The notes beneath the pieces were generated by a model. It was not told the DNA's origin. It saw only the letters and a list, made by a program, of their open reading frames with translations, and searched no databases. From assembly GCA_041662585.1 (NCBI GenBank), contig JBAZSG010000004.1:18173-82172 (forward strand): a stretch of DNA of 64,000 nt, given 5' to 3'. This DNA is from Patescibacteria group bacterium (GTDB lineage: Bacteria; Patescibacteriota; Patescibacteriia; UBA1558; GWA2-36-10). Of the stretch, positions 9,771 to 27,905 are shown in pieces (the first letter of the stretch is position 1; each line of letters begins with the position of its first letter). The position numbers and the translations under genes are program-made.

Positions 9771-10325
9771 ATGAAAAAAGTACAGCAAATAAAAAATTTA
9801 ATTAAAAATGAATGTGCCAAAGGGCCAATAGATGATTGGTTTTACTCAACATACTTATTGGGTGTAGAAAAATTTGCCAAATGGCTACTAGCTAGACTAC
9901 CAAAAGCAAACAAAGAAGTAGTCATGCTAGGAGTTTGGCTTCATGATTTACAGAGGATAAAAGGCATCAAAGGCAATCATCAAGAAGTGGGCGCTAAGGA
10001 AGCCGAAAAAGTAATGATAAAATTTGCTTATGATAATAAAACAATTAATCAAGTAAAAAATATAATCCTTAGTCATTCTTGTAGTAGTAAAAAGCCAAAT
10101 ACTTTGGAAGGAAAGATTTTGGCTAGTGCCGATGCCATGTCTCATTATCATAATGATTTTTTCTTACAAATTGCTGTAACTGGTCAAAGAAATTTAGAAG
10201 AATATAAAAAATGGGTATTAGAAAAATTAAATAGAAATTATAATGTAAAAATTTGTTTTCCTTTTGCCAAAAAATCTATAAAGGCAAGGCATGATTTATT
10301 TAAAAAGGTTTTTACCATGAAGTAG
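9771..10325 (+). CDS. Hypothetical protein, weak HD-phosphohydrolase-like motifs
   Basis: 184 aa; WLHDLQR (HD dyad), LSHSC, SADAMSHY present but no upstream motif-I His found; bracketed by the 57-bp direct repeats. Confidence 0.3.
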   Translation: MKKVQQIKNLIKNECAKGPIDDWFYSTYLLGVEKFAKWLLARLPKANKEVVMLGVWLHDLQRIKGIKGNHQEVGAKEAEKVMIKFAYDNKTINQVKNIILSHSCSSKKPNTLEGKILASADAMSHYHNDFFLQIAVTGQRNLEEYKKWVLEKLNRNYNVKICFPFAKKSIKARHDLFKKVFTMK

Positions 10326-10943: not shown

Positions 10944-11417
10944 ATGAAAGTAAAACCAATAAAACTATCAGCAGCTATACTAATGTCTTTAGCCGCTGGA
11001 GCTATAGGCTCAGCCTTTACTTTTACCGGCATAGATTCTTGGTATCAATATCTCAACAAACCAAGCTTCAATCCACCTTCTTGGATATTTGGTCCAGTCT
11101 GGACCACACTATATATTTTGATGGGTATAGCTTTGTATTTGATTTGGCAAGAAGGACTTAAAAAAGCCTTTGTTAAAAACTCTTTTATATTGTTTATAGT
11201 CAATCTAGTTTTAAATTCTCTCTGGTCTATTACTTTCTTTGGTTTACAAAATCCAGCTTTGGCATTTTTGGTGATTGTCTTGCTCTGGATTACTATCTTG
11301 GTACTTATCATTCGTTTCTATAGGATAAACAAACTAGCATCTTATCTACTGATACCATATCTATTATGGGTTAGTTTTGCTAGTGTGTTAAATTTTAGTA
11401 TTTGGCAGTTGAATTAA
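10944..11417 (+). CDS. tspO: TspO/MBR family tryptophan-rich membrane protein, paralog 1
   Basis: 157 aa; five TM helices, Trp-rich, FNPPSWIFGPVWTTLYILMGIALYLIW signature. Confidence 0.8.
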   Translation: MKVKPIKLSAAILMSLAAGAIGSAFTFTGIDSWYQYLNKPSFNPPSWIFGPVWTTLYILMGIALYLIWQEGLKKAFVKNSFILFIVNLVLNSLWSITFFGLQNPALAFLVIVLLWITILVLIIRFYRINKLASYLLIPYLLWVSFASVLNFSIWQLN

Positions 11418-11620: not shown

Positions 11621-12658
11621 ATGAATAAAAGACAGAAACAAATTATAGAATTTGCTAGGAAAAATGATTCTTTTCAAAATAAAGATTTAGTTATTTTTTT
11701 TGACGATAAATATTCTAGAGAAACAATAACTAGAGATTTATCTTTTTTGTGTAAGCAGAATTTTTTGCGTAAAAGCGGTGCTGGAGCGTTTGTAACTTAT
11801 TCTTTGTCTGAAGTTTATGGAATTTTAGAGAAGGTTAATATCAAAAAATATTTTGATATTCCATACTTAAAAAGAGAAGTAAGGGAAAGTTTTAATTTTG
11901 AAATACTAGATGTCTTGGAGAAGGATATTTTTACAGCTGAGGAAAAAACAAAACTAGAAAATTTACAAAAAGATTTTATTGGCAATTTCTCAAAATATGA
12001 TAGTCAAACTCTTATTAACAAAGAATTTGAAAGAATAATGATTGAATTTTCTTGGAAATCTTCAGTAATTGAAGGCAACACTTATTCACTTTTAGGTACT
12101 GAAGCTTTGATTAAGAATAATGTGATAGGAGAAGGCAAGACAGATAAAGAAACTCAAATGATTTTGAATCATAAGGATGCTTTTAATGAAGCTATTCAGA
12201 ATAAAGAAAGATTTAAAAAATTACATGTTTCTGATATTGAATATATTCATTCAGTTTTAACTAAAAAACTCGGAATTTCTAAAAATATAAGAAACGGAGC
12301 AGTTGGAGTCACTGGTACAAAGTATAAGCCTCTAGATAATGAGTATCAGATCAAAGAAGTGATGAAAAAAATGGTTGATCTCATTAATAAAAAAGAATCT
12401 TTTTTTGAAAAAGCTTTTTTGGTATTAATTCTTATCTCTTATATACAAATTTTTGAAGATGGAAACAAAAGAACCTCTCGTATGATTTCTAATGCTATTT
12501 TATTGGCACATAACTCAATACCACTCTCTTATAGAATCGTAGATGTTGAGGAATATAAAAAAGCTGTTATATTATTTTATGAAATAAATAACGTTTCTTA
12601 TTTTAAACAGATATTTATTAATCAGTTTGAAGATGCCGTTAATAATTATTTTAAATAG
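11621..12658 (+). CDS. Fic/Doc-family protein (class II-like, N-terminal SxxxEG inhibitory motif) with a degenerate catalytic motif
   Basis: 345 aa; SSVIEGNT (S-x-x-x-E-G) upstream of IQIFEDGNKRTSR, which aligns to HPFx(D/E)GNGRxxR with His replaced by Gln and the second Gly by Lys. Confidence 0.65.
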   Translation: MNKRQKQIIEFARKNDSFQNKDLVIFFDDKYSRETITRDLSFLCKQNFLRKSGAGAFVTYSLSEVYGILEKVNIKKYFDIPYLKREVRESFNFEILDVLEKDIFTAEEKTKLENLQKDFIGNFSKYDSQTLINKEFERIMIEFSWKSSVIEGNTYSLLGTEALIKNNVIGEGKTDKETQMILNHKDAFNEAIQNKERFKKLHVSDIEYIHSVLTKKLGISKNIRNGAVGVTGTKYKPLDNEYQIKEVMKKMVDLINKKESFFEKAFLVLILISYIQIFEDGNKRTSRMISNAILLAHNSIPLSYRIVDVEEYKKAVILFYEINNVSYFKQIFINQFEDAVNNYFK

Positions 12659-12712
12659 TGTCTATAGATAAAGTATAGACAAGATCATATCTTTTAATTA
12701 GTGATAACTTAA

Positions 12713-12739
12713 AAACTACTCTAGTGAGTAGTTTTTTGA
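12713..12739 (+). terminator. Rho-independent terminator hairpin X (AAAACTACTC-tagt-GAGTAGTTTT + T-run), copy 1
   Basis: Perfect 10-bp stem; a near-identical copy lies at 17114..17140. Confidence 0.75.
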
Positions 12740-12751
12740 TATAATAACCAT

Positions 12752-13197
12752 ATGAACAAACTATGTCCTATAACAAAACCATATAAGACAGCTAAGCTAA
12801 AGGTATCTAAATTACACACTCTTTATTATGAGCAAGTAGGTAATCCACAAGGAGTGCCTCTGGTATATTTACTATGAGTAAATGGGAATTAGATTGGTTG
12901 CATAATGATAAGGCTAAGATGTTTTATCCTGATGCTTGGCAAGTATATTCTGCTGGTCTAAAGAAAAATCAAACAAGTAATTTGATAGAGGTATTTTATA
13001 AGAAAGTATTTTCAAAAGTTATAATCCAAGGACGTTATGATATGATTTGTCCACCTATTACTGCTTGGAAGCTTCATGAGACTTGGACAAAGGCAGATTT
13101 TGAGATGATAGAAGCTTCAGGGCATCATTCTAGTGAAAAGAATAATATAGATGTTATTATAAAATATACTAATAAGATGTTGAGATATAAAATTTAA
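12752..13197 (+). pseudogene. pip: Proline iminopeptidase (pip) remnant: N-terminal 41 codons and C-terminal ~107 codons joined with a frameshift; ~190 internal codons deleted
   Basis: 12752..12877 encodes MNKLCPITKPYKTAKLKVSKLHTLYYEQVGNPQGVPLVYLL*, the start of the Pip N-terminal signature, but it stops before the GGPG motif. 12874..13197 (other frame) encodes IQGRYDMICPPITAWKLHETWTKADFEMIEASGHHS, a Pip C-terminal signature. Confidence 0.6.
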
Positions 13198-13206
13198 TTT
13201 AAAACT

Positions 13207-16200
13207 ATGTACAAAACTCAAACATTAACTAAAACATCAGTTTCTATTAAAGAAAAAATTGCTATTGGTGTTGGACTATTAGCCATTAGCTTTATTGGTT
13301 TCAACTTTATTTTTTCATTATTTGGTGAAGTATTAGAGCCAGTAAAAAAAATAGTAATATCAAAGCCACAAACTATAGTTAACAATAATGTATATAGTAT
13401 ATATCCAGTTTTTGAAAAAAAGTATGTAGAAGATGAAATTATAATTAAAATTGCAGATAAGGTAAGTAAAGAAACTATTGAGTCTGTGATAATGACAGAT
13501 CTTACAAACTTATCTCCAAAACAAATAAATTTTAGTTTGAGCGAAACAGATAAAGAGTCTGTATTGCTAAAACCTGTATTTTCTCATTTTAAAAATAAAG
13601 AATTAGGATTTAAATATGATCTTGATAAATTTTATTATATAAAAAATTTAAGCACGGATGAAGATCAATTGATAAAGGATTTACAAAAAACAAATAACTA
13701 TGAATATGTTGGACGTTTAGTAGAACCTCAAACTTTTTTTACGCCAAATGATACATTTTATAACAAGCAATGGTTTCTTAATAATACTGGACAAAGTGAT
13801 TTAATAAACTATGTACCGCCAGCAATATCAGGTTTTGATATAAATGCTCCAGAAGCTTGGGATACTACACAAGGTTCCAGTGATATTATTATTGCTTTTA
13901 ATGAATTGACACAACCTAATCATCCGGATTTAGTAAATAATATGTGGGTTAATGATGATGCTCCTGGTGATAAAAATAGTGATGGTTGTCCTGGAGTATG
14001 TGGAATTGATGATGATGGTGATGGCCTGATTGATGAAGATAGATTAGATAATGAACCAGGGGATATGGGGTATTTAAATGATTTAGTCAATGACGATGAT
14101 GAAAATGGATATCCAGACGATATTCATGGTTGGAATTTTACGACAAACTCAGGAGATGTTTATAGTGAGTATGCTCAACACGGCATGGGTGTTCATGGTT
14201 TGTTAGCAGCGCAAGGAAACAATTCATTAGGAGTAAGTGGAGTATGTCCACAGTGTAAAGTTATGTCGATTGGTTCTGAATGGGGAGCTGAATCAATAAT
14301 AGCAGCACCTGTTTACGCAGTTGATAATGGTGCTAGGATTTTAAGTATGAGCTATTTAACAACAGATGATCCAGCTTTGCATGCAGCAGTGCAATACGCA
14401 TATGAGGCTGGATTATTAATGTTTGGTGCCTCTGGTAACTCTAATATCTCAACGGAAGCTCTTTATCCAACTTTTTATTCAGAAGTATTAGCGATTACCG
14501 CTGCTGATCAGTTTGGTTGGAAAGCTCCTTGGAGTGTTTTTGGTCCAAAAACAGAACTTATGGCTCCTGGAAGTGAAATATTATCAACCACAGTTAATGA
14601 TCAGTATGCATATTTTGGCGGTACCTCTGGCGCAACACCCGTTGTGGCTGGTATCGCAGGATTAGTTTTTTCGGCAAATCCTTTACTGACAGCACATGAT
14701 GTAAAAAATATATTACGTACTACAGCACAGCCATATAAATCTTGGTTTTATGCAGGTGTAGGTATGGTTGACACAGAAGCGGCAGTACAACTTGCGCAAT
14801 ATTCTAATACACCAAGAGTAGAGATAAATGATCCACTACAAAGCACAGTAATAGCAAATAGCGACACCTCTTATAATATAAGAGGTAGTGCCAACGGAGA
14901 TAAATTTGTATCGTATGATCTAGTATATGGTAGAGGAATGTTTCCTTCGGATTGGACGTATATTGTGCAATCTAGTAATAATCAAGTAGCGGACAATGTA
15001 TTAGGAATATTTGATGTTAGCAGTGTAGGGGCTGGGTATTATACGGTTGAATTACGAGTTACTTCATCAGACGGAATAGAATATACAGATAAAATAGTTT
15101 TGTATAAACAACATGCATTTGATCAATCTTGGCCAATAGAACTTAGCGCAGGAGGGCTTAAAGAATCATTAGGTATATTTGATATTTTAGATGATAACAA
15201 TCCAGAGTTTTTGGTTGCAGATTATGATTCAAATAACATTGAAATATATTCTATTAATGGTTCTCTTGTAACTAGTACAGATATAGATAGTGCAGTAATT
15301 AATAGTCCAACTTTTGTAGTACAAGGGGATGTAACTTGTGATGGTAATAAAGACACAATAGTAGTGACAAAAAAAAATTGGCCATCTATTCCTTTAATAT
15401 ATATTTATGATAAAAGTGGAAATAAAATTAGAGAATTTGAAGTACCTGGCATAACAATACTCAGTTATAATTTTTCAAACGTCGCATTAGGTGATATTAA
15501 TGGTGATGGCTGTGATGAAATAGTTATTAAAACAGCAGAATCAATTTTAGTTGTGGATGGTAATGGCATAAATCTTGGTTCTAAAGATTATTCATTATTA
15601 CAAATGGGATCCCCAGCAATATTTGATATTAATAATGATGGCACTAATGAAATATTATTTTCCTCAAATGAAGGAATTGATTGTTTAACATATTCAAATT
15701 CAGCTTTATCAATGTGTCCTGGACAATGGCCTTATTATATAGATGGTTATCCGGGAGTAGCTACAATAGTGGTTGATTTGGATTCCGATAATGTTTTTGA
15801 AATTGTTAATTTTGCCTTTTCTATACAAATATTAGAATTAAATGGAACGCTTATTAACGATATTCAAATACCAAGACTTATACCTACTATGGGAAACAAT
15901 GAAACATTTATCACTGGATTTGCAATTGGCGATATTAATAATGATCAGCAATATGAAATAATTTTTACTCGAGATTCAAGATTTGGAAATGTAATGAATG
16001 GCGAGGAGCAAAATATATATGCCTATACATTACAAGGAGCTCTTATTGATGGGTGGCCACAAAAATCTGAAGCATCTGGTAATAGTAAGGTTGCTATTCG
16101 AATTGATGATTTAGATGGAGACGGTATTAATGATATTTTATATGAGCAAAATAATCGTATTTTTGCTTTTCATGGTGATGGAAGTGTTGTGAATAGCTTT

Positions 16201-16623
16201 CCTCGCCAAATGTCAAATTTTGAAAATAGTCAGGAAATAGATATTTATTTATGGGATGATAAGCAAGGCTCCGAGTTATTTCTTTATTCTTTTGTAAGAT
16301 TTGGGGACTTATCTAGGATTACTAAAAATACATTTTCAAGTAATGATTCTATAGGTACATGGCAATTACCTTTTGCGAATAGGCAATCTTCAATGACTCT
16401 ACCAAGTATGTATGTTCAGCCAATGTGTTCAGATGGTACAGCCTATAATAAGTGCAATGATAGTGCTCAATATTGTGATGAAGGTCGGCTTATATCACGT
16501 TGTGATTTATGTAATAAAGGTTGTTTAGATGGTTATGATTGTATATCAGGCCAATGTTGTCAGAAAATAGAAGGTCAATATGAGTGTGATATAGCCACAG
16601 AGCAGTTTGATTTAAAATATTAA
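13207..16623 (+). CDS. Secreted, membrane-anchored subtilisin-like (S8) serine protease with a Ca-binding Asp-rich insert, FG-GAP/VCBS beta-propeller repeats and a Cys-rich C-terminus
   Basis: 1138 aa; N-terminal TM/signal; Asp (DINAPEAWD), His (HGMGVHGL) and Ser (GGTSGATPVVAG) catalytic motifs; DDDGDGLIDEDRLDNEPGD insert; repeated GDINGDGxDEI, FDINNDGTNEILF, DDLDGDGINDILY; C-terminal CSDGTAYNKCNDSAQYCDEGRLISRCDLCNKGC. Confidence 0.8.
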   Translation: MYKTQTLTKTSVSIKEKIAIGVGLLAISFIGFNFIFSLFGEVLEPVKKIVISKPQTIVNNNVYSIYPVFEKKYVEDEIIIKIADKVSKETIESVIMTDLTNLSPKQINFSLSETDKESVLLKPVFSHFKNKELGFKYDLDKFYYIKNLSTDEDQLIKDLQKTNNYEYVGRLVEPQTFFTPNDTFYNKQWFLNNTGQSDLINYVPPAISGFDINAPEAWDTTQGSSDIIIAFNELTQPNHPDLVNNMWVNDDAPGDKNSDGCPGVCGIDDDGDGLIDEDRLDNEPGDMGYLNDLVNDDDENGYPDDIHGWNFTTNSGDVYSEYAQHGMGVHGLLAAQGNNSLGVSGVCPQCKVMSIGSEWGAESIIAAPVYAVDNGARILSMSYLTTDDPALHAAVQYAYEAGLLMFGASGNSNISTEALYPTFYSEVLAITAADQFGWKAPWSVFGPKTELMAPGSEILSTTVNDQYAYFGGTSGATPVVAGIAGLVFSANPLLTAHDVKNILRTTAQPYKSWFYAGVGMVDTEAAVQLAQYSNTPRVEINDPLQSTVIANSDTSYNIRGSANGDKFVSYDLVYGRGMFPSDWTYIVQSSNNQVADNVLGIFDVSSVGAGYYTVELRVTSSDGIEYTDKIVLYKQHAFDQSWPIELSAGGLKESLGIFDILDDNNPEFLVADYDSNNIEIYSINGSLVTSTDIDSAVINSPTFVVQGDVTCDGNKDTIVVTKKNWPSIPLIYIYDKSGNKIREFEVPGITILSYNFSNVALGDINGDGCDEIVIKTAESILVVDGNGINLGSKDYSLLQMGSPAIFDINNDGTNEILFSSNEGIDCLTYSNSALSMCPGQWPYYIDGYPGVATIVVDLDSDNVFEIVNFAFSIQILELNGTLINDIQIPRLIPTMGNNETFITGFAIGDINNDQQYEIIFTRDSRFGNVMNGEEQNIYAYTLQGALIDGWPQKSEASGNSKVAIRIDDLDGDGINDILYEQNNRIFAFHGDGSVVNSFPRQMSNFENSQEIDIYLWDDKQGSELFLYSFVRFGDLSRITKNTFSSNDSIGTWQLPFANRQSSMTLPSMYVQPMCSDGTAYNKCNDSAQYCDEGRLISRCDLCNKGCLDGYDCISGQCCQKIEGQYECDIATEQFDLKY

Positions 16624-16632: not shown

Positions 16633-17100
16633 ATGAAAATAATAAAACTATCAGCAGCTATACTAATGTCTCTAGCCGCTGGAGCTATAGGTTCAGCCTT
16701 TACTTTTACAGGAATAGATTCTTGGTATCAATATCTCAACAAACCAAGCTTCAATCCACCTTCTTGGATATTTGGTCCAGTCTGGACCACACTATATATT
16801 TTGATGGGTATAGCTTTGTATTTGATTTGGCAAGAAGGACTTAAAAAAGCCTTTGTCAAAAACTCTTTTATATTGTTTGTAGTCAATCTAGTCTTAAATT
16901 CTCTCTGGTCTATTGCTTTCTTTGGTTTACAAAATCCAGCTTTGGCATTTTTGGTGATTGTCTTACTATGGGTTAGTATATTAGTACTTATCATTCGTTT
17001 CTATAGGATAAATAAACTAGCTTCTTATCTACTAATACCATATCTACTATGGGTTAGTTTTGCTAGTGTTTTAAACTTTAGTATTTGGCAGTTGAATTAA
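16633..17100 (+). CDS. tspO: TspO/MBR family protein, paralog 2 (~96% nucleotide identity to 10944..11417)
   Basis: 155 aa, near-identical protein; the DNA repeat runs from ~16643 to the stop. Confidence 0.8.
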   Translation: MKIIKLSAAILMSLAAGAIGSAFTFTGIDSWYQYLNKPSFNPPSWIFGPVWTTLYILMGIALYLIWQEGLKKAFVKNSFILFVVNLVLNSLWSIAFFGLQNPALAFLVIVLLWVSILVLIIRFYRINKLASYLLIPYLLWVSFASVLNFSIWQLN

Positions 17101-17113
17101 AGGTATAGAAGAT

Positions 17114-17140
17114 AAAAACTACTCTAGCGAGTAGTTTTTT
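17114..17140 (+). terminator. Terminator hairpin X, copy 2 (AAAACTACTC-tagc-GAGTAGTTTT + T-run)
   Basis: Same stem-loop as 12713..12739. Confidence 0.75.
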
Positions 17141-17217
17141 GGTATAAAAATAGTCGGATGACAGGGACAAGAATAAACTTGTATATCATCCGACTATTGG
17201 ATTGTAGGCCAAGTTGT

Positions 17218-17637
17218 CTAGCCTTCGGACTGCTTGACGGCGTCGAACTCGATCTCGACCAGAGCATCGAAGGGGAGCCAGGAGACACCGAAGGCCTTGC
17301 GCCTGGGCCTCACGACGGAGGTGTTGACTCCGAAGGAGACCTTCCAGCAATCGTTGAGGCAGGCGTAGTCCCGGGGGTAGTTGTCGCTGACGATCATGAC
17401 CGTCGCCGAGTGGACGTCGTCCGGCGTCAGACCGACAGCGATGAGCTGGTCGGCCATCTTCTGCAGTACCTCGACGACCTGCTCCTGGAAGTTGCCGTTG
17501 GACTTCAGCCGGCCGTTCTCGACGATGCCTATGGTGCCGGAGAAGTGGAAGTGGTTACCGACCTGCACGCAGGTTGAGTAGGGTTGACCCGGAGCTTCCA
17601 TATTGGCTATGGCAGCTGGCTTGGTTTTTTGGGGCAT
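17218..17637 (-). CDS. ridA: RidA/YjgF/TdcF-family enamine/imine deaminase, compositionally foreign (~64% GC)
   Basis: 139 aa from the ATG at 17637, preceded by AGGAGGT; YjgF signature (PAAIANMEAPGQPYSTCVQVGNHFHFSGTIG...VVRPRRKAFGVSWLPFDALVEIEFDA); GC-rich sequence matches the ORF extent (~17195..17640). The track's longer start at 17724 is unlikely. Confidence 0.8.
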   Translation of the reverse strand: MPQKTKPAAIANMEAPGQPYSTCVQVGNHFHFSGTIGIVENGRLKSNGNFQEQVVEVLQKMADQLIAVGLTPDDVHSATVMIVSDNYPRDYACLNDCWKVSFGVNTSVVRPRRKAFGVSWLPFDALVEIEFDAVKQSEG

Positions 17638-17742
17638 GAAATACCTCCTATAGTGTACAGGTTTTGTCTGCTGGGCAGACGTTGGTTGATGGATAAAGTT
17701 ATAATAAATAACTATTTTTGTCAATAATTGTTTTAAATAAAA

Positions 17743-17871
17743 ATGTACAATTTTGTAATTTTAAATATTTTATAAAATGTACAATTTTAAAGTAAAAATA
17801 TCAAAAAATAAGGTATTTTTAGCATAAAAATGTACAATATTATATTAAAAACTTGTCAAAAAATGTACAAT
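17743..17871 (+). promoter_or_regulatory. Four direct repeats of (A)AAATGTACAAT (palindromic TGTACA core) at 17743, 17777, 17830 and 17863, upstream of a perfect TATAAT -10 box (17887..17892) and the MerR-GHKL gene
   Basis: Motif copies seen directly, in two pairs spaced 33-34 bp; a likely operator array. Confidence 0.55.
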
Positions 17872-17908
17872 TTGTTATACTTATTTTATAATATTAAGCT
17901 ATATAAAT

Positions 17909-18643
17909 ATGCCATACAAATTTGATATAAATGAAACTGCTGATATTTTGGGAGTCAATCCTTATACTTTACGTAGATGGGATAATAAAAAAATACTTAA
18001 AGCTAATAGAGATAGCGAAAAAGGACATCGTTATTATTTTGAAGATGATATAGAAATTTTTTTATCTAATAATTATAAGTATCTTTTAAAAATTGCCAAT
18101 AAATGGTCTCTTTCAAAGGAATCTATAAAAATACCATCTAGGTTCTATTGTGAAGATGCTTTTGTATTTAAGTCTCGTTTATCTAGATTTGCAGAAACTT
18201 TAAAGAGAGATGGTGTTCTTGGAGATTCTTTTTCACTGGTCACTTCTGTTGTAGGTGAAATTGGCAATAATTCATTTGATCATAATATTGGTAATTGGCC
18301 AGACATACCTGGAATATTTTTTGGATATAGTCTAAAAGAGCGTAAAATTATTTTAGCTGATAGAGGAAGAGGTGTGCTCACTACATTACAAAAAATTAGG
18401 CCAGAATTAGCCAATGATAAAGATGCTTTAAAAATAGCATTTACAGAAGTAGTGACCGGTAGATATCCAGAGAATAGAGGTAATGGATTGAAGTATGTCA
18501 AAAAAATAGTACAGAATAATAATATGTTTTTATGGTTTCATTCAGGGCAAAATGCTATTGTGCTAAAAAGTAAATCATCAGATTTGATAAATATAGACCT
18601 AGAGAAATATATGAGGGGGTGTTTTGTTATATTAGAATATTAA
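17909..18643 (+). CDS. MerR-type HTH DNA-binding domain fused to a GHKL (RsbW-like) ATPase/kinase domain
   Basis: 244 aa; N-terminal TADILGVNPYTLRRWDNKKIL...GHRYY (MerR HTH); C-terminal N-box EIGNNSFDH, G1 box DRGRGV, G2 box GNGLKYV. Confidence 0.65.
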   Translation: MPYKFDINETADILGVNPYTLRRWDNKKILKANRDSEKGHRYYFEDDIEIFLSNNYKYLLKIANKWSLSKESIKIPSRFYCEDAFVFKSRLSRFAETLKRDGVLGDSFSLVTSVVGEIGNNSFDHNIGNWPDIPGIFFGYSLKERKIILADRGRGVLTTLQKIRPELANDKDALKIAFTEVVTGRYPENRGNGLKYVKKIVQNNNMFLWFHSGQNAIVLKSKSSDLINIDLEKYMRGCFVILEY

Positions 18644-18659
18644 AAATTAAAATAAAATT

Positions 18660-18950
18660 ATGAATATAGAATTAAAAAAATTTGGCACTACTTTAACATC
18701 AAGAGATGGTGGTAAAGAAGCTTATAATGCACTGCAATCATCATTAATTAATTTTAAAGAAGATGAAGAATTGGTCGTAGATTTTAAGGGCGTTGATACT
18801 TTTTCTCCATCATGGGGGGATGAGTTTTTAGCAAATTTATTTAATAAATACAAAAATAGATTAGTACTTATCAATACTACTAATCCATCTGTAATCGCGA
18901 CTTTGGAAATGTTGTCAGATATAAAAGATATTAAATTTAATTTGCAATAG
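18660..18950 (+). CDS. STAS-like anti-sigma-factor-antagonist-type protein (DUF4325-like)
   Basis: 96 aa; VVDFKGVDTFSPSWGDEFLANL resembles the phosphorylatable-Ser loop of SpoIIAA/RsbV-type STAS domains; 16 nt downstream of the GHKL gene. Confidence 0.5.
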   Translation: MNIELKKFGTTLTSRDGGKEAYNALQSSLINFKEDEELVVDFKGVDTFSPSWGDEFLANLFNKYKNRLVLINTTNPSVIATLEMLSDIKDIKFNLQ

Positions 18951-18984
18951 AAATAAGATATTTAATGATAAAAAATAATAAAAA

Positions 18985-20238
18985 CTAACTCTTACTACTA
19001 GCTTCACCAGCTAGTCGTCCAGTCGCCCAAGCTGCTTGGAGATTGAAGCCACCGGTATAGCCATCAATATCTAGTATCTCTCCAGCAAAATACAAGTTGG
19101 GACAAAGCTTTGATTCCATAGTACTAGGGTTTATCTCTTTTAAAGACACGCCACCAGCAGTGACAAACTCATCGCCAGCTCGACGACTTACTATCGTCAA
19201 GGGTATATTTTTTAACCAAGTACTGACAGCTTGAAATTCTGCTTTGCTTATTTCAGCATTTTTCTTTTGACCGTCTATAGCCAGTTGGGCTAGGAGGACA
19301 GTGGCTAGTGATAGTGGTATTACTTTGCGGATACTATGCTTAAATATTTTTTTGGGCTCAGCTTGAGCAAAGTTTTTTAATTTTTCTTTCAAGTCTTCCA
19401 GAGATAAGTCTGGAAATAGGTCTATAGATACTTTTAGAGGCTTAGTTTCGCTAAAATTTTCAAAAGCAATCAGTGATGACAGAGCAAAGACAGCTGGTCC
19501 ACTGATACCCCAGTGAGTAAAGAGAAAAGGACCAGAAAATTCATGTTTCTTTTTGGTATTAGCTTTTAATTTGGCATTTAGAAAAGACAGACCAGATACA
19601 TCACTAGGCCAAGTTTCTTTGGTGGTCAGTGAGCTGAGACTAGGGGCTAAGTTGCTGATAGTATGTCCTAGGCTTTCGGCTAGAGCGTAGCCATCACCAG
19701 TAGAGCCAGTGTGTCTGTAGGCTTGACCGCCCAAGGTCAAAATGACTTTGTCAGTAGTGAGTGCTTGGTGATTTTTAAAGTGAATAGTAAATTGTTTTTT
19801 ATTTTTTTCAATTTTTGTAACAGAGTGTTTGAGTAATATTTTTTGCTTGTCACTAGATAATATATTTTCAAAGACTCTGACTATATCTTGACCATTATTG
19901 GACACGGGAAAGACTCGCATATCAGCTTCGCATTTTAGAGCTACGCCGTGATTTTCAAACCAATCTTTTACTTCTCTAGGTGGGAAAGCATACATAGCTG
20001 AATTTAAAAATTTATTACCTCGTGGATATTTTTCTAGCACAGTTTTGATATCTTCAATGCCAGTAGTGACATTGCACCGGCCACCACCCGAGATGATTAC
20101 TTTTTTTCCTAGTGAGTCATTTCGCTCAATCAAAAAAACTTCCATTTCTGGATTGTTTTTCACTATAGTAGCGGCACACATCATGCCAGCTGCTCCACCA
20201 CCGATTACTGCTATACGCATAAAATTTATTTTATGCAT
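18985..20238 (-). CDS. HI0933/BaiN-family FAD-dependent oxidoreductase (aminoacetone oxidase-like flavoprotein)
   Basis: GGGAAGMMCA dinucleotide-binding motif, GGGRCNVT, C-terminal TGGFNLQAAWATG. Confidence 0.8.
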   Translation of the reverse strand: MHKINFMRIAVIGGGAAGMMCAATIVKNNPEMEVFLIERNDSLGKKVIISGGGRCNVTTGIEDIKTVLEKYPRGNKFLNSAMYAFPPREVKDWFENHGVALKCEADMRVFPVSNNGQDIVRVFENILSSDKQKILLKHSVTKIEKNKKQFTIHFKNHQALTTDKVILTLGGQAYRHTGSTGDGYALAESLGHTISNLAPSLSSLTTKETWPSDVSGLSFLNAKLKANTKKKHEFSGPFLFTHWGISGPAVFALSSLIAFENFSETKPLKVSIDLFPDLSLEDLKEKLKNFAQAEPKKIFKHSIRKVIPLSLATVLLAQLAIDGQKKNAEISKAEFQAVSTWLKNIPLTIVSRRAGDEFVTAGGVSLKEINPSTMESKLCPNLYFAGEILDIDGYTGGFNLQAAWATGRLAGEASSKS

Positions 20239-20329
20239 TTATCTTAGCATATACTTTGATTTATTAAAAACATTTATTTTATAGTCTGGTTTTGCTATAA
20301 TAAGTATATATTAAATTAATTAAAAATAT

Positions 20330-20644
20330 ATGATTATCACAACAGGGGAAACTATCCCAGGCAAAAAAGTAGTTAAAATTTTGGGTATTTCACGAGGTAG
20401 CACAGTCAGAGCTCGCAATATTGGTCGAGATATTTTGGCCGGGCTCAAAAATATAGTCGGAGGAGAAATCAGTGAATACACCAAGCTCCAAGCCGAGTCT
20501 CGTGAACAGGCTATGGAGCGTATGATAGCCGATGCTAGCAAGCTAGGCGCTGATGCTGTCATCAATCTTCGAATACAAACATCTATGATTATGCAAAATG
20601 CTTCAGAGATGCTAGTTTATGGTACAGCTGTAAAAATAGAATAA
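20330..20644 (+). CDS. YbjQ/UPF0145-family protein
   Basis: 104 aa, typical length, overall similarity to YbjQ (DUF74). Confidence 0.7.
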   Translation: MIITTGETIPGKKVVKILGISRGSTVRARNIGRDILAGLKNIVGGEISEYTKLQAESREQAMERMIADASKLGADAVINLRIQTSMIMQNASEMLVYGTAVKIE

Positions 20645-20777
20645 TTATATGTCAAATTTAATTCCATTTTTGATTTGGGGTATTATCGGGATAATTCTTA
20701 TCTATCTTATTTTCAAAAGAATAAAAGACAAGAAGAAAGAAACTTTTGAAGATAGAGATAATTAATACAAAAAATGA

Positions 20778-20815
20778 AAGTCGCTCTCCATAGTGTTGGG
20801 GAGCGACTTTTTTTG
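20778..20815. terminator. Bidirectional Rho-independent terminator (GTCGCTCTCC...GGGGAGCGAC, A-run/T-run on both sides) between the ybjQ region and the desaturase
   Basis: 10-bp stem seen directly. Confidence 0.7.
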
Positions 20816-20824
20816 GTAGCGTGA

Positions 20825-21976
20825 TTAAGTACTAATCACTTTACACAGCACTAGCCACTTTTGCCATTTTTCATGATAAGCTCGGCGAAGCTCTTTGAGT
20901 TGTTGGCCTAGACTTTGTCTGGCTGGTTTATTGTGTTTGGGCGTAGCCCTATATTCCTTGATGGTTGTTGAGAGTTCTTTACTCAAGGTTCTTAGAGATT
21001 GATAGTATGAGTTTATGAGGTCCTCAATATTATGGTTGGGAAATAGTCCGTGCTTTTGTAAAGCAGCCTGTATCTTGGCTTTGTCCAAATTTTGGATTAG
21101 CCCCAAGAGCCGTTGATGATCCAAACCAATCAATCTATTGGTTATAGTATGGTTATTGTGTTTTTTTAGATCTTTGGCCAGACCTACTTTGCTCATCAAC
21201 CAAATGATCCATTTGTTGGGATCAAATTGATACCAGCGCCAACCATTGCGATAGTCGGCTGGAAAGGCATGGTGATAGCTGTGATAGCCTTCTCCCAGAG
21301 TTATACCAGCCAATATGGCATTGTTTCTGGCAGAGCACTCTCTGGAATAGGATTGCTCACCCCAATAGTGAGCTAGCGAATTGATAAACCACGTGATGTG
21401 GTACGAAAAGAACAAGCGTACACCAAAGACCATGACAAAGGCTCCTAGTAAGTCGCCGAGCATCCAGCTAGTTGTGACAATGACCAGGATGTTAGCGAGG
21501 ACGGCGAGTATTACAAAATAGCGGTTCTGAAAAACCACCAAGCGATTTTCCATCAAATCAGGTACGATTTTTTGGTCAATCTTTGGACGTTTTTCAAAAA
21601 GCCACAATATATGAGCATGGAGCAGACCTTTTTTGACATTGTAAGGATCTCCTTCCTTGTCGGTGTAGCGATGGTGGAGTCTGTGGTCATGACTCCAAGA
21701 CAAGGCTGATCCTTGAATAGTCAAAGTGGCCAAAAAGAGAAAAATACTCTCAGGTAGTTTGGCCATTTGGTATGCCCGATGCGAATAGAACCTATGATAA
21801 GCCGAGGTGACTCCTAGAATACTAGCAAAGAGCCAAAAGATACTTATCATTATCAAGCTCCCAGAAGGTGGGGCGAGATAAAAATAAAATGGCAAGCCAA
21901 GTATAGCTAGAACGTGTACGACGAAAATAAAAATACCAGGTGTGGTCCAGCTTAGATTGGAAAATTTTTCTTTCAT
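20825..21976 (-). CDS. Membrane acyl-lipid/acyl-CoA delta-9-type fatty acid desaturase
   Basis: Three His boxes: HRFYSHRAY, HDHRLHHRYTD, HNYHHAF-like EGYHSYHHAF; N-terminal TM helices. Confidence 0.85.
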   Translation of the reverse strand: MKEKFSNLSWTTPGIFIFVVHVLAILGLPFYFYLAPPSGSLIMISIFWLFASILGVTSAYHRFYSHRAYQMAKLPESIFLFLATLTIQGSALSWSHDHRLHHRYTDKEGDPYNVKKGLLHAHILWLFEKRPKIDQKIVPDLMENRLVVFQNRYFVILAVLANILVIVTTSWMLGDLLGAFVMVFGVRLFFSYHITWFINSLAHYWGEQSYSRECSARNNAILAGITLGEGYHSYHHAFPADYRNGWRWYQFDPNKWIIWLMSKVGLAKDLKKHNNHTITNRLIGLDHQRLLGLIQNLDKAKIQAALQKHGLFPNHNIEDLINSYYQSLRTLSKELSTTIKEYRATPKHNKPARQSLGQQLKELRRAYHEKWQKWLVLCKVIST

Positions 21977-22110
21977 AATAGCTATCTCCTTATTTTTTTG
22001 TTATGATATCTTATTTTCTGTAGCAAGCTTAGCATATTATTGGATTTATTAAAACGTTACTTTTTGTTGGTTTTTTGCTATACTTAGTATATAAAATTAA
22101 AATAAAAATT

Positions 22111-23457
22111 ATGATTAAAAACAACCAAGGATTTAGTGATGCAATTAGTATGACTATTGTCTGTGGTATATTGGGTGCTTTGTTTATTACGGGAGTTTTT
22201 GTGTGGAAAGAAACTGAGCTTTTTAGAGCCAATCAATTTATAAACAAAATTTTTAACATTGAATTAAAGGCTGATACAAAAGACGAAGCTAAAACAATAA
22301 TACTCAATGAAGGACAACATGATATTGTTTTGGATGCTACAGACCAGACTTATATTTTAGCTGATAGTAAAACAGAGCTAGTCTTAAAAAGAGTCCATAC
22401 CATATATGAATTGGGTGGTGAAAATGGTGCATACGGTCCCAATAATATATTTGAAGAAAAAGGTCTTCCTTATCTGAAGATAGATGATGCTTGGTTAGAA
22501 ATTTTTAATGATGCCGAAATTTATAGTAATGGTTATAATATTAAATTGAAAAATAATGGTTGTGCTATTTTAGAAAAATTTCAAGAGGACTATTCTTATA
22601 ATTATATTGATAGTTGCAATATCAGTGTTGATATTAAAAAAGACGAGGCTGATTATATTTTACCCAAAGCCACGGAACATACATTTTCTTTTGATACTCG
22701 TTATGATGGCTTTTTGATAAAAAACAATTATGACAATTTTGTAGCCATTAGAGAAACAGGTTTTTATGTGGGCAATATTGACAACAGCAAAAATCCGCCA
22801 GAGCCAACGAGTTTAAGAGCAGGACTGGATATAATCACCAATTTTGGAGTAAAAAATATAGAATTTGATTTATTTGATGAGAAAGTATTAAATCGTGTTG
22901 ATAGTATAATCATCGGGCCATTAAAAATAAGCTATTCAATCAAAGATGTCGGCAATAGCAATACGCATTGTTATACCGGCTCCTGTATAAATATTTTTGT
23001 CATTGAACTCAAGTCAGAAGTAATTGATGATAAATATTCAGAAGTCAAGATTATCTCTCCGGCTTCATTATTAGAAGAGCCAACAAATGAAGAGCTACTT
23101 TTAGAAGCCATAAAATCAAATGATAAACAGCTGTGTAATAATATATTAGATTTGGACAAAGAATTGTGTATAAATGTTTTTGAAGATAAATGTGATGTAT
23201 ATTCAGATATAAATTTGGAATCATGCGAGTATTTTAAAACCATTTTAGACAATAGTATTGTCATTGATAATACGACAGTCTGTTTGCCAGAACAAAGAAA
23301 TGCCGATGCTTGTGTGTTTATATATGATCCAGTCTGTGCTAGTGTCAATGTAGAATGTATTACTGCGCCTTGTCCACCAATCAAACAAACTTTTTCAAAT
23401 TCATGTGAGGCTTGTCGTAATAGTCGGGTGATTGATTATATAAAAGGTGAGTGCTAA
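22111..23457 (+). CDS. Secreted hypothetical protein with a C-terminal Kazal-like Cys-rich domain
   Basis: Signal/TM at N-terminus (MTIVCGILGALFITGVFVW); C-terminal DPVCASVNVECITAPCPPIKQTFSNSCEAC fits a Kazal-like disulfide pattern; start chosen at the internal ATG. Confidence 0.5.
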   Translation: MIKNNQGFSDAISMTIVCGILGALFITGVFVWKETELFRANQFINKIFNIELKADTKDEAKTIILNEGQHDIVLDATDQTYILADSKTELVLKRVHTIYELGGENGAYGPNNIFEEKGLPYLKIDDAWLEIFNDAEIYSNGYNIKLKNNGCAILEKFQEDYSYNYIDSCNISVDIKKDEADYILPKATEHTFSFDTRYDGFLIKNNYDNFVAIRETGFYVGNIDNSKNPPEPTSLRAGLDIITNFGVKNIEFDLFDEKVLNRVDSIIIGPLKISYSIKDVGNSNTHCYTGSCINIFVIELKSEVIDDKYSEVKIISPASLLEEPTNEELLLEAIKSNDKQLCNNILDLDKELCINVFEDKCDVYSDINLESCEYFKTILDNSIVIDNTTVCLPEQRNADACVFIYDPVCASVNVECITAPCPPIKQTFSNSCEACRNSRVIDYIKGEC

Positions 23458-23477
23458 TTAAATAAAAATTTATAAAC

Positions 23478-23517
23478 AAAAAACCGTCCTGAGCGTAGTC
23501 GAATGGACGGTTTTTTA
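23478..23517. terminator. Bidirectional terminator (AACCGTCC...GGACGGTT flanked by A-run and T-run) between convergent genes
   Basis: 8-bp stem seen directly. Confidence 0.7.
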
Positions 23518-23522
23518 AAATA

Positions 23523-24026
23523 TTATTTTTTCTTTTTTTTGCTAGCTACTTTTTTCTTGGATGTTTTTTGTTTTACTACTTTATTGGAGCTAGCTTTTTT
23601 ATTTGATTCAGTTTTTTCTTCAGCTGGAGCATGGGGACTCAAAGCTTTTAAGAGCTCATCAAATTTGTAGTTTAGAGTTTTCAAACTCTTCAAGATATCT
23701 TTGGTATCATTGTTTTTGGCACCAGAGCTTCTATCTTCAAAGCTAGGTCTTCTATCTCTGTCGCCACCTCTGTCTCCACCACGTCTATCATTGCCTCTAT
23801 TACCACCACCTTGTTTACTAAAACAGTCACTACAAAAAATAGGTTTATCACCGCTAGGTTTAAAAGGTACTTCACAGCTTTTATGGCAAGCATCACAAAC
23901 TGCTTGGTGCATTGTTGGTCTTTCGCCTCTGTCTCTATTAAAACCACCACCACCGCGTCTATCTCCACCTCGGTCTCTATTAAAACCACCCCCGTGCCTA
24001 TCTCCACCTCTATTAAAGTTTCCCAT
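23523..24026 (-). CDS. RGG/RGD-repeat zinc-ribbon protein (putative nucleic-acid binding) with a Lys-rich tail
   Basis: 167 aa; GGDRHGGGFNRDRGGDRRGGGGFNRDRG repeats flanking CDACHKSC...FCSDCF (CxxC-x13-CxxC); KKKK tail. Confidence 0.5.
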   Translation of the reverse strand: MGNFNRGGDRHGGGFNRDRGGDRRGGGGFNRDRGERPTMHQAVCDACHKSCEVPFKPSGDKPIFCSDCFSKQGGGNRGNDRRGGDRGGDRDRRPSFEDRSSGAKNNDTKDILKSLKTLNYKFDELLKALSPHAPAEEKTESNKKASSNKVVKQKTSKKKVASKKKKK

Positions 24027-24166
24027 AGTTGATTTATATTAGTTAATATATTTTATATTCTAGCTATTTTATAGATAAATAGCAATAGCACTTGCTAAAT
24101 AAGCTATATTTTTGTAACCTTTTATAGCTAGCATGGTATTTAATAAATGTAAGCCAAAACAAATAA

Positions 24167-24700
24167 GTGAATTCACATAATGAGGAAAATTTGAAAAGTC
24201 TTATATTGTTGAGCATAGAGGGCAGGGAAAGTTCTTTTCAACAATTATATGAACATTTGTCAGATCAATTGTTTAGATTTGTATTTGCTCGTTGTAGCAA
24301 CAGAGAAGATACGCTGGACTTATTACAAGATATATTTGTTGATTTGTGGAAAGCTTTGCCAAAATTTAAATATTCTACCGATGCTGAATTTTATAGTTTT
24401 GTCTTTACGATTACTCGTCGTAAGCTCAGTAAATATTATAGGTTTAAAAATAAGTCTGTAGTCTTTGACGAAAAATATATCAGAGAAAATTATGAAATAC
24501 AGCCAGAGGATTATTGGCTACTTGAAAAGATAATCCCGAGGCTCAAAGATAAATATCGTCAGGTTTTAGAATTACGCTATTTTAGTGATTTCACTTTTGC
24601 TCAAATTGCAAAATTTTTGAACATCAAAGAATCTACAGCCAAGGTACAGCATCATCGAGCTATCAAACAACTCAGCGATATAATCAAAAAATATGAATAG
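24167..24700 (+). CDS. ECF-type sigma-70 family RNA polymerase sigma factor
   Basis: Region 2 (LLQDIFVDLWKAL) and region 4 HTH (YRQVLELRYFSDFTFAQIAKFLNIKESTAKVQHHRAIKQL); GTG start in track. Confidence 0.75.
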   Translation: MNSHNEENLKSLILLSIEGRESSFQQLYEHLSDQLFRFVFARCSNREDTLDLLQDIFVDLWKALPKFKYSTDAEFYSFVFTITRRKLSKYYRFKNKSVVFDEKYIRENYEIQPEDYWLLEKIIPRLKDKYRQVLELRYFSDFTFAQIAKFLNIKESTAKVQHHRAIKQLSDIIKKYE

Positions 24701-25550
24701 TAATATAAACAATAAACTAGAAAAAATAAAAACTAAATCTTTGTCATCAACAGAAAAAGATACTCTGTGGCAAGGTATTAGTCATGATATAAATCAAGAA
24801 AATAATTTATCATTTTTTAGTTTGTTGTTTAGTAGAAAAGTGGTGTTCAATATAGCTATAGCTATATTGGTAATTTTTGGAGGATTTATCGCTACTGTCC
24901 AAGCAGCCGATAGAGCCAAACCAGGTGACAAATTGTACGCTCTAGATAGAGCAGTAGAAAATATACAAATTACTTTTGCTTCTCCAGCCAATAAAGACAA
25001 ACTCAAAATAAAATTTTCTCAGGAAAGAGCTAGTGAAATACAAGGTGTAATTAAAAAAAATATTGATGAAGATTTTGAATTTGAAAAAGACAAAAATAAA
25101 AATTCCAATGTCGGGAATAATGTCGGGAATATAGAAGAATCTAGTCATGATGCCTTAAAATATATAATTAAAGTAAGGAATGAATTGTTTGAAAAAAACA
25201 ATCAAATAGCTGTAGATGATTTGGATATTTTGCTAGAGAGTGTACAGGCTAGTCTAGCTACATTGCCAGACAATATGAAAGTAGATGTAGAAATAGAAGA
25301 AGAAAACAACAAAGCTGAATTTAGGATTAATTTTAAAGATGAAGATGGTCAATTTAAGATAAAATATAAATCAGCCGAAAATAATAAAAATAATCGTAAT
25401 ACTAATGATAAAGAAGAAGAAGATGAAGATGAAAATGAGGATATTGAATTGAAAAATCAAAAACTTGATAATATTAATAATGACGAAGAAGAAGATGAAG
25501 ATGAAAATGAGGATGATGACAAAGATGATAAAGAAGATGAAGACAGATAA
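24693..25550 (+). CDS. Single-pass membrane protein, putative anti-sigma factor, with a long acidic repeat tail
   Basis: Start overlaps the sigma factor stop (ATGAATAG); one TM (VVFNIAIAILVIFGGFIATV); tail with duplicated EEEDEDENED blocks and NVGNNVGN. Confidence 0.45.
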   Translation: MNSNINNKLEKIKTKSLSSTEKDTLWQGISHDINQENNLSFFSLLFSRKVVFNIAIAILVIFGGFIATVQAADRAKPGDKLYALDRAVENIQITFASPANKDKLKIKFSQERASEIQGVIKKNIDEDFEFEKDKNKNSNVGNNVGNIEESSHDALKYIIKVRNELFEKNNQIAVDDLDILLESVQASLATLPDNMKVDVEIEEENNKAEFRINFKDEDGQFKIKYKSAENNKNNRNTNDKEEEDEDENEDIELKNQKLDNINNDEEEDEDENEDDDKDDKEDEDR

Positions 25551-25628
25551 TAGAGGTTTTTGTGGCACTTCTTGTAATTATTTAGCCAAAGTGATATTTT
25601 AAATACATAACAAACTTTAAATAAAAGT

Positions 25629-26171
25629 ATGAAAAAAAATATTCTTATTTTTTTGCTGTCAGCAGTCATTATTGTTTTGGCTGTTTTTGGTTTTAATTAT
25701 TATAAAAAACCAGTCAATGAAAATTTAAATGTCAATAATAATGTCAATGACAATGGAAATCAGGTAAAAAAGTTAGCCACTGATTTGACAGTCAAAGTTT
25801 TTTTGGGCAACGAGCAATTTAATCCCAATGCTATGGATTGCAGCTTGGTTTATCCTGTTGAAAGAAAAGTAGCTGTTACTCCGGCGATAGCTAGAGCCGC
25901 TTTGAATAGTCTATTGCTTGGTCCAAGCAACACGGAAAAACAAAATGGATATTATACTTCTCTTAATACTGGAGTAAGTATTAATTCACTTAAGATTGAA
26001 AATAAAACTGCTTATGTGGATTTTGATAATCAATTGGAACAAGGGGTTGGTGGCTCTTGTCGAGTTTTGGCCATTGCTTCTCAAATCAGAGCTACACTGA
26101 TGCAGTTTGATACAGTAGAGAATGTAGTGATATCAATTGACGGCCGGACAGAAGATATTTTACAGCCATAA
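25629..26171 (+). CDS. GerMN-domain (Gmad2-like) secreted protein
   Basis: N-terminal TM; LVYPVERKVAVTPAIARAALNSLLLGPS...YVDFDNQL...ISIDGRTEDILQP matches the GerMN pattern. Confidence 0.55.
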   Translation: MKKNILIFLLSAVIIVLAVFGFNYYKKPVNENLNVNNNVNDNGNQVKKLATDLTVKVFLGNEQFNPNAMDCSLVYPVERKVAVTPAIARAALNSLLLGPSNTEKQNGYYTSLNTGVSINSLKIENKTAYVDFDNQLEQGVGGSCRVLAIASQIRATLMQFDTVENVVISIDGRTEDILQP

Positions 26172-26194
26172 TATTTTGAAATATTTATAAAATA

Positions 26195-26225
26195 AAAAGC
26201 TAGGTTTTAAAACTTAGCTTTTTGA
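26195..26225. terminator. Bidirectional terminator hairpin (AAAGCTAGG...CTTAGCTTT)
   Basis: Stem-loop with flanking A/T runs between convergent genes. Confidence 0.6.
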
Positions 26226-26263
26226 TTTGGGCTCTGAGATTATCGTCGTATAATTGTTTATAG

Positions 26264-27199: not shown

Positions 27200-27394
27200 G
27201 GTTTATGGTAATAATTAAATATATTTTATTGATTCTTTGTGTATTATAGCATAGATTTATAAAATTTATTAAACAAAAAACCACTAGCCAGAAGGCTACT
27301 GATTTTTTCATTGGCTCCGCCCTACGTCGCGCAGTGCTCCTCAGGACGTCGCAGTAAAAATAAAAATCCGAACAAAAGTTCAGATTTTTATTTT

Positions 27395-27469: not shown

Positions 27470-27486
27470 ATATATATAATAAAGCT

Positions 27487-27563: not shown

Positions 27564-27590
27564 TTAGGGTTAATTTGTAATAATAAAGTT

Positions 27591-27666: not shown

Positions 27667-27696
27667 TCATGAAAAAAGAAAATATTTATTTTGTTT

Positions 27697-27904: not shown

Positions 27905-27905
27905 A

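Follow-up and report, generated by a model that had tools for sequence, protein, structure and literature searches.

A mobile, GC-rich Rid-family gene cassette shared among AT-rich Patescibacteria-type genomes

Introduction

In the model of Lawrence and Ochman, compositionally atypical islands in bacterial genomes reportedly arise by horizontal transfer and then ameliorate. Atypical GC content is routinely taken as a clock for recent transfer. Here we describe a gene lineage for which this clock probably fails. The gene, rid, belongs to the RidA/YjgF/YER057c/UK114 (Rid) family and lies on the minus strand of a 64,000-nucleotide stretch of DNA (the window) from a Patescibacteria group bacterium (assembly GCA_041662585.1, contig JBAZSG010000004.1, positions 18,173 to 82,172). 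Its coding sequence is 60.5% GC, in a window that is 33.4% GC overall.

The rid island resembles those of the Lawrence and Ochman model in its sharp discontinuity in GC and in GC at third codon positions (GC3), in covering one gene in a flexible region, and in the occurrence of the same module in unrelated contexts of other genomes. It differs in that many AT-rich genomes show the anomaly, over a deep clade (45-85% protein identity), and in that the anomaly persists where syntenic genomes have saturated core synonymous sites. There is no detectable GC-rich donor, and the co-inherited promoter is extremely AT-rich. GC content probably fails as a clock here because relatives of about 45% identity have the same anomaly, because the gene has an AT-rich promoter of its own, and because the anomaly has survived in the saturated syntenic genomes.

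Two other described systems bear on the locus. GC-biased gene conversion (gBGC) in bacteria was detected by Lassalle et al. (2015; PMC4450053) as an average GC3 that is higher in recombining core genes than in non-recombining ones. Within the Rid family, the imine-hydrolysing group (RidA, Rid1-3) is recognised by the equivalent of Arg105 of the S. enterica and E. coli proteins, together with Glu120 (Niehaus et al. 2015; PMC4433059).

The island is real, it encodes a Rid-family protein, and it moves between genomes as a cassette with definable borders. Its GC excess is shared by its whole clade, and the databases hold no close high-GC donor. What is unusual is the persistent, clade-wide compositional anomaly; the gene itself is a member of a new Rid subfamily. 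The best overall explanation, which we consider probable, is a truly integrated, mobile Rid cassette of a clade living in AT-rich genomes, with its GC content held by a process specific to the cassette.

Results and Discussion

A GC-rich gene in an AT-rich window

In 100-nt windows, GC content rises from 0.28-0.33 to 0.58-0.64 across 17200-17600 and falls to 0.10-0.28 at 17650-17750. With all 64 kb divided into 400-nt bins, the bin 17201-17600, at 0.608, is the only one above 0.52. GC content at the first, second and third codon positions of the rid open reading frame (ORF) is 0.586, 0.386 and 0.843. The other ORFs of at least 100 aa (n = 56) have a mean GC3 of 0.258 with a standard deviation (SD) of 0.062, which puts rid at z = 9.4. 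GTC supplies 14 of the 17 Val codons (GTG 2), and GAC, CTG and GGC supply 6 of 8, 4 of 7 and 5 of 10 for their amino acids. The fraction of codons ending in A or T is 0.57 in codons 2-15 and 0.11 elsewhere.

These values bear out much of an earlier interpretation made from the letters of the window alone (the sequence-only reading), which had pointed to a sharp GC jump over the ORF with a drop at both ends, to GC3-rich codons (GTC, GAC, CTG, GGC) and to AT-richer codons over roughly the first 15. It had put the island at about 64% GC; the island is indeed GC-rich, but that figure is reached in the peak window only. By segment, GC content is 0.13 in the promoter, 0.45 in the leader, 0.52 in codons 1-21, 0.62 in codons 22-140 and 0.38 in the 3' untranslated region, and the excess thus reaches about 58 nt upstream of the coding sequence, into the leader.

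A second GC spike, the bin 27601-28000 (0.517), is accounted for by six clustered minus-strand tRNA genes (27395-27992: Asn-GTT, Met, Met, Pro-GGG, Ala-GGC, Leu-CAA), whose GGG and GGC anticodons read C/U-ending codons. The next-highest GC3 values after rid belong to ORFs at 29881-30408 (175 aa, no Pfam match; 0.51) and 20825-21976 (a fatty-acid desaturase; 0.445), which may be older acquisitions. An antisense ORF on the plus strand at 17158-17577 was rejected as a gene. Its frame is complementary to rid codon for codon, and its translation is low in complexity (V/D/G/L/E). It stays open because rid avoids TTA, CTA and TCA codons, a by-product of high GC3.

The island is integrated

The sequence-only reading had considered a chimeric contig, while taking the host-like flanks as a sign of real integration. 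A second, separately deposited record spans both junctions: the end of a 213-kb contig from a Patescibacteria metagenome-assembled genome (GCA_041667165.1; L001) matches window 16734-27601 at 99.98%, with two mismatches, both outside the island. This record possibly comes from the same reads and is a second deposition rather than proof of a second sample. Contigs of 175-392 kb assembled in other studies also contain homologous GC-rich islands, and three genomes have them at syntenic positions.

Chimeras do arise in metagenome assemblies, and the L001 contig stops 484 bp beyond rid, as might be seen if contaminant reads had joined a high-GC fragment to an AT-rich contig. The stop falls inside a TspO gene, however, and the window has two TspO/MBR copies (10944-11417 and 16633-17100) that are about 95% identical at the nucleotide level, so this is an ordinary repeat break. 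The second record crosses both junctions without a mismatch in the island, similar islands recur elsewhere, and rid has a promoter, ribosome-binding site and terminator of host type. We regard an assembly artefact as extremely improbable, and the flanks as those of a real integration.

The GC excess belongs to the whole clade

A word-indexed search gave nine relatives, all of the named ones labelled Patescibacteria or Parcubacteria. When 1.84 billion representatives were searched exhaustively with phmmer, only 16 matches reached E<=1e-10, the best of them 50% identical; no protein above 50% identity was found among the representatives. Rid genes that are natively GC-rich, on contigs of 58-76% GC (metagenome contigs of unassigned taxonomy), are 30-37% identical and match the GC of their own genomes.

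We sampled the DNA context of 12 distinct members of the window's subclade, all of at least 44% identity (Table 1). All but one lie in DNA of 32-42% GC, and of these 11 most have a rid GC3 of 0.64-0.94 and one has 0.51. In the seven other loci with enough neighbouring ORFs, rid GC3 is 4-9 SD above that of its neighbours. The subclade is monophyletic in a neighbour-joining tree (built with no bootstrap support). GC3 in its sister clade (labels: Patescibacteria or 'Gammaproteobacteria') is 0.30-0.54 and thus near-native, and the two clades lie far from the natively high-GC Rid genes. High GC3 is therefore a property of the whole gene clade, and not a sign of recent actinobacterial import. No relative of rid was found in IMG/VR that would point to phage carriage, and a search of the literature for a prior description of such a case gave nothing relevant.

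Table 1. Third-position GC of rid and GC content of the surrounding DNA in the 12 sampled loci
Locus	rid GC3	Surrounding GC
window	0.84	0.33
L002	0.94	0.38
L003	0.89	0.41
L005	0.83	0.41
L007	0.77	0.42
L016	0.89	0.38
L018	0.64	0.36
L032	0.81	0.34
L084	0.84	0.39
L086	0.68	0.32
L015	0.51	0.36
L085	0.83	0.56

The sequence-only reading had proposed a single recent transfer from a high-GC, actinobacterial-like donor and a BLAST search to find that donor. The high GC3 with its GTC, GAC, CTG and GGC codons does resemble high-GC codon usage, the compositional borders are sharp, and rid lies in a flexible, defence-rich region. The search of the 1.84 billion representatives nevertheless gave no close high-GC donor, the Rid genes of high-GC contigs are distant, and the nearest relatives lie in AT-rich, mostly Patescibacteria-labelled genomes with the same anomaly. 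The preference for GTC over GTG is seemingly more C-biased than usage in Actinobacteria. The conserved promoter of the module is 13% GC, and is therefore a poor fit to a recent arrival from a genome of 65-70% GC. A donor of this kind is very improbable.

The cassette is mobile

Homology between the window and L002, at 85.6% identity, begins a little upstream of the -35 element (about 17733) and runs to the last sense codon near 17222; outside this stretch the two are unrelated. L018 and L086 have the leader and coding sequence alone in common with the window module, and the alignment with L015 (52% protein identity) continues through the leader. Promoter, leader and coding sequence are inherited and transferred together among AT-rich genomes, as seen in the L002 and L015 alignments, in the TTGACA element of seven of eight loci and in the compensated leader hairpin (both described below). 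Horizontal acquisition as such, the more general part of the sequence-only reading, thus stands, given a copy in L002 that includes promoter and leader within unrelated flanks. In the window the cassette sits between a duplicated TspO gene and a gene for a regulator with a MerR-type helix-turn-helix (MerR-HTH), in a neighbourhood whose content suggests a flexible, defence-rich region.

High GC is probably not a timestamp

Three Parcubacteria loci, L016, L084 and L005, are syntenic, with the order FtsX-L27-LexA-hyp354-(hyp171-Rid-...)-PEGA. In L016 (4458-6518) and L084 (5454-7819) the GC-elevated block has four genes: a 171-aa ORF without a Pfam match (hyp171), Rid, a phosphoribosyltransferase (PRTase) and a 91-aa ORF (p91). 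The third genome (L005/L006) has a 174-aa ORF and Rid, and in L005 a spurious antisense gene has been called over the 174-aa ORF.

Between L016 and L084 most core genes have a synonymous divergence (dS) above 2 or one that is not computable, and their GC3 is 0.24-0.39. The GC3 values of the island genes in L016 and L084 are 0.67 and 0.62 for hyp171, 0.89 and 0.84 for Rid, 0.57 and 0.51 for the PRTase, and 0.62 in both for p91. A two-state model fitted to 435 core fourfold-degenerate sites of this pair gave (u+v)2t = 2.16 (95% CI 1.57-3.92). Fourfold sites that were 100% G/C at the split and changed neutrally would now have a GC content (GC4) of 0.58-0.65. The partner genes of the island are at this neutral level (0.54-0.69), while Rid is at 0.84-0.86. 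G<->C differences occupy 25% of Rid fourfold sites, against 2-7% in the partners. With vertical descent in this pair, the synonymous sites of Rid have therefore turned over heavily while staying G/C, and high GC is probably not a timestamp in this gene lineage.

Several further lines were set aside. A parsimony polarisation of synonymous changes (S>W 46, W>S 3) is biased, as the outgroups are distant and GC-saturated. Saturation-normalised synonymous divergence between L084 and L005 gave no discrimination, the neighbouring genes being near saturation. Translational selection was rejected: the genes for ribosomal proteins L27 and L9 in the same genomes have a GC3 of 0.25-0.38, so the host does not prefer codons ending in G or C. 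Self-immunity to an RNase (L-PSP) activity by way of base composition was a further idea, for which nothing was found in support.

What might hold the GC content of rid

In the explanation that we prefer, the cassette is self-contained. Its sigma-70 promoter and its leader (about 58 nt, including the 5' hairpin and the TGTACAC box) precede a strong ribosome-binding site and the Rid coding sequence, and a locally acquired terminator follows. It moves as a module running from promoter to stop codon between AT-rich genomes, Patescibacteria where named, and a GC-favouring process specific to it would keep its synonymous sites G/C inside them. One candidate process is selection on synonymous sites or on the mRNA, which may for example favour a long-lived, RNase-resistant message. 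The consensus promoter, 5' hairpin, strong ribosome-binding site and strong terminator fit this version. The other candidate is gBGC during frequent allele exchange, which may be confined to the sole stretch that is homologous between the exchanging genomes. Like the gBGC described in PMC4450053, the rid excess is strongest at third positions and goes with signs of allele exchange, and the effect would be limited to the stretch homologous between donor and recipient.

We put forward only tentatively the specific claim that a gene-specific force, either synonymous selection or cassette-confined gBGC, holds GC3 at about 0.8-0.94 in genomes of 33-42% GC beyond the saturation of neighbouring genes. 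Selection and gBGC taken jointly have a chance that likewise falls a little short of even. The probability left after these and after repeated imports lies with mixtures and with unknown causes.

Repeated, independent imports from an unsampled or poorly sampled GC-rich reservoir would make high GC3 a timestamp on each occasion, with the copies in decay. L085 is a clade member with near-native GC3 in a contig of about 57% GC, and the spread of GC3 from 0.51 to 0.94 is what would be expected of stages of decay. The window copy shows a net gain of A/T relative to L002, the discordance specific to Rid in the syntenic slot shows that alleles have been replaced, and the partners hyp171, PRTase and p91 have the GC expected if they began GC-rich and decayed neutrally. 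On the other hand, 11 of the 12 sampled contexts are AT-rich, and the exception is a contig of just 3.1 kb, binned as Edwardsbacteria (neighbour GC3 0.61-0.83). Its protein (P0165) is a singleton without close relatives; the nearest, at 61%, is that of L032, in 34% GC DNA. No donor more than 50% identical was found among the 1.84 billion representatives, and some ten or more separate recent imports would be needed. The 13% GC promoter and the leader have been inherited with the coding sequence across deep splits. The A/T-ending codons of the window copy are also clustered rather than uniform: half lie within codons 3-21, a pattern closer to the relaxed mRNA structure usual at 5' ends than to uniform decay. 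Repeated import is in our view unlikely, and yet much less so than a single actinobacterial transfer.

Several points weigh against the preferred explanation of a GC content held by a cassette-specific process. The rid mRNA is no more structured than its synonymous permutations. The differences in GC3 in PMC4450053 seem much smaller than that between rid (0.84-0.94) and its neighbours (0.26-0.42). The near-match of L085 to its contig means that GC-richer carriers exist, and the DNA contexts are those of 12 members in a clade that has about 25 more. Synonymous differences between the window and L002 run 13 to A/T in the window against 2 to G/C; both this and the clade's spread in GC3 also fit ordinary amelioration at different stages. 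Finally, the ratio of divergence from L005 to divergence between L016 and L084 is 2.46 for Rid, compared with 1.1-1.3 for most core genes and 1.33 for hyp171, at which the three genomes are almost equidistant. At least one Rid allele has been replaced in the syntenic slot. The history of Rid is therefore not purely vertical; the argument for persistence assumes vertical descent for the L016-L084 pair only.

If selection or gBGC is the cause, the cassette offers a compact natural system in which to measure the forces on bacterial base composition. A gene-specific force would make it an unusually clean case of the composition of a single gene decoupled from genomic mutational bias.

Anatomy of the cassette

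The elements of the cassette are listed in Table 2. The promoter segment (17696-17733) is the 13% GC stretch noted above. A perfect TTGACA, a 17-nt spacer and a TAnnnT-like -10 element occur in seven of the eight monocistronic clade loci with upstream sequence. A simple consensus scan omitted the rid promoter; TAACTT matches TATAAT at too few positions. The leader, of about 58 nt, follows the -10 element. RNAalifold predicts six pairs in its hairpin, two with compensatory double changes, the compensated forms being GTCTAC/GTAGAC in L015 and GCCTG/CAGGC in L003 and L032. The TGTACAC box is a candidate operator or RNA element. In the loci of the clade that were compared, AGGAGG or GGAGG occupies the equivalent position; L018 has AGGGGGG.

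Table 2. Features of the rid cassette and its downstream border
Feature	Position	Strand	Basis and details
Rid-family coding sequence	17218..17637	-	ORF list, PF01042, AlphaFold2 (AF2)/Foldseek; 139 aa, GC 0.605, GC3 0.843
Shine-Dalgarno AGGAGG	17645..17650	-	read from sequence; 7 nt upstream of ATG
TGTACAC box in leader	17654..17660	-	present in window, L002 and L015; GTACAC in L018 and L086
5'-proximal leader hairpin GTCTGC-CCA-GCAGAC (coding strand)	17667..17681	-	RNAalifold, 5 leaders
Sigma-70-type promoter	17696..17724	-	-35 TTGACA 17724-17719, 17-nt spacer, -10 TAACTT 17701-17696
Intrinsic rid terminator	17149..17198	-	13-nt perfect arms 17149-17161 / 17186-17198, 24-nt loop
Separate hairpin AAAAACTACTC-GCTA-GAGTAGTTTTT	17114..17139		ends convergent TspO-2 gene; host sequence just outside cassette

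Downstream of the stop codon, which is itself spanned by a small hairpin, the sequence-only reading had noticed an 11-bp inverted repeat at 17149..17194. The repeat exists, and its arms are longer than had been thought, ending at 17198. The full stem is 15 bp long, with a second stem inside it, and UUUUUAUACC (a U-run) comes next on the minus strand. The fold of 17135-17225 on the minus strand has an energy of -33.8 kcal/mol (z = -7.87), and none of 200 shuffles was as stable. This hairpin serves as the rid terminator. L002 does not share it but has another terminator, and the one in the window is locally acquired. The terminator of TspO-2 has a 38-nt copy at 12710-12747. Searches of the leader and terminator against Rfam gave no match beyond a sub-threshold miRNA (E = 0.22), and at gathering thresholds tRNAs only.

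Two other identities for the element were rejected. A structured RNA hidden in the coding sequence was sought by comparing minimum free energies with those of 60 synonymous-codon permutations; z ranged from +0.15 to -2.43 in eight homologues, with no consistent excess. An integron gene cassette would have a promoterless ORF, an attC site downstream of it and an integrase nearby. The rid gene has its own promoter, and the inverted repeat is absent from L002 and lacks R''/R' core motifs by eye, inspection being the only check for attC. The rid neighbourhood showed no integrase.

A distinct Rid subfamily

The protein matches PF01042 over residues 16-134 (64.1 bits against a gathering cutoff of 27.3; E = 1.6e-17), but falls below the curated NCBIfam cutoffs in the comparison with archetypal RidA (TIGR00004 / PRK11401): TIGR00004 gives 48.3 bits (cutoff 106.25), NF008490 32.1 (cutoff 222) and RutC 18.3 (cutoff 169). 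As the TIGR00004 cutoff is missed, we call it a Rid-family protein and not RidA. Its matches in the PDB are RidA/UK114/PH0854 as well as YabJ and TdcF (E down to 2.6e-9), and identity to any solved Rid structure is at most 34%. The AF2 model, a monomer, has a pLDDT of 94.7 and a pTM of 0.88, and shows the chorismate-mutase-like beta-alpha-beta-alpha-beta fold of a Rid monomer. Foldseek aligns it with RidA, UK114, HRSP12 and PH0854 at TM 0.78-0.85 (E down to 7e-13).

R113 aligns with the catalytic Arg of PH0854 and UK114, and both R113 and E128 are invariant across 44 clade and near-clade sequences. These are the residues that correspond to Arg105 and Glu120 of PMC4433059, and a Tyr or Phe occupies the Tyr17 position. 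By these sequence marks the protein would belong to the arginine-containing, imine-hydrolysing Rid group without being an archetypal RidA. With the fold of RidA and with catalytic Arg and Glu both invariant, its most likely activity is the hydrolysis of reactive imines or enamines.

An ordered N-terminal extension of 12-15 residues, MPKKxKP, is common to the whole clade and marks a distinct small Rid subfamily. The NCBI/JGI protein (P0001, 127 aa) begins at the internal Met13 and omits 17602-17637. The true start is probably the ATG at 17637 and the 127-aa call too short, since the MPKKxKP motif is conserved, AGGAGG is correctly placed for it and the structure of residues 1-12 is predicted with confidence.

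The likeness to the wider family thus lies in the PF01042 match, the fold and the catalytic residues, and the difference in the low TIGR00004 score, the distance from solved structures, the extension, and the small size of the clade, a few dozen sequences that occur almost only in AT-rich DNA of Patescibacteria type. Gene context offers further parallels. In L003 rid adjoins, on its upstream side, a complete pyrimidine-biosynthesis cluster, echoing a reported link between RidA and carbamoyl-phosphate metabolism, and PRTase genes adjoin rid in L016, L084 and L085. Directly downstream of rid and convergent with it, L003 (10567-11883; also L004) has a gene for a 438-aa reverse transcriptase (RVT_1).

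The result is an uncharacterised small Rid subfamily, defined by a conserved N-terminal extension and leader, in organisms with minimal metabolism. In practical terms, the annotated start codon and the name 'RidA' are corrected, and caution is called for in inferring donors from codon usage alone.

The neighbourhood of rid in the window

The flexible region around the cassette holds an AbiU/AIPR gene, an HD-domain gene, a SoFic-like gene, a hydrolase fragment and the duplicated TspO. The AIPR/AbiU gene, of abortive-infection type (7948-9591), and the HD-domain gene (9771-10325) lie upstream of the first TspO copy. The two TspO copies bracket 5.2 kb with the SoFic-like Fic gene (11621-12658), a 107-aa alpha/beta-hydrolase fragment (12874-13197) and a gene (13207-16623) for a 1138-aa S8 subtilase with FG-GAP repeats. 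Membership of rid in a defence system was considered and rejected, there being no PADLOC match.

On the other side of the cassette, the divergent MerR-HTH gene (17909-18643) encodes a 244-aa protein with the HTH at its N-terminus and about 190 C-terminal residues without a Pfam match; PADLOC gives a weak mad1 match to the HTH only. It is followed by a gene for a 96-aa DUF4325 STAS-like protein (18660-18950); together the two resemble a module for regulation or partner switching. Between the rid promoter and the MerR-HTH gene, four exact direct copies of AAAATGTACAAT lie in 17740-17871 (starting at 17740, 17774, 17827 and 17860), with no other exact copy in the 64 kb. These repeats may form a putative operator array for the adjacent regulator.

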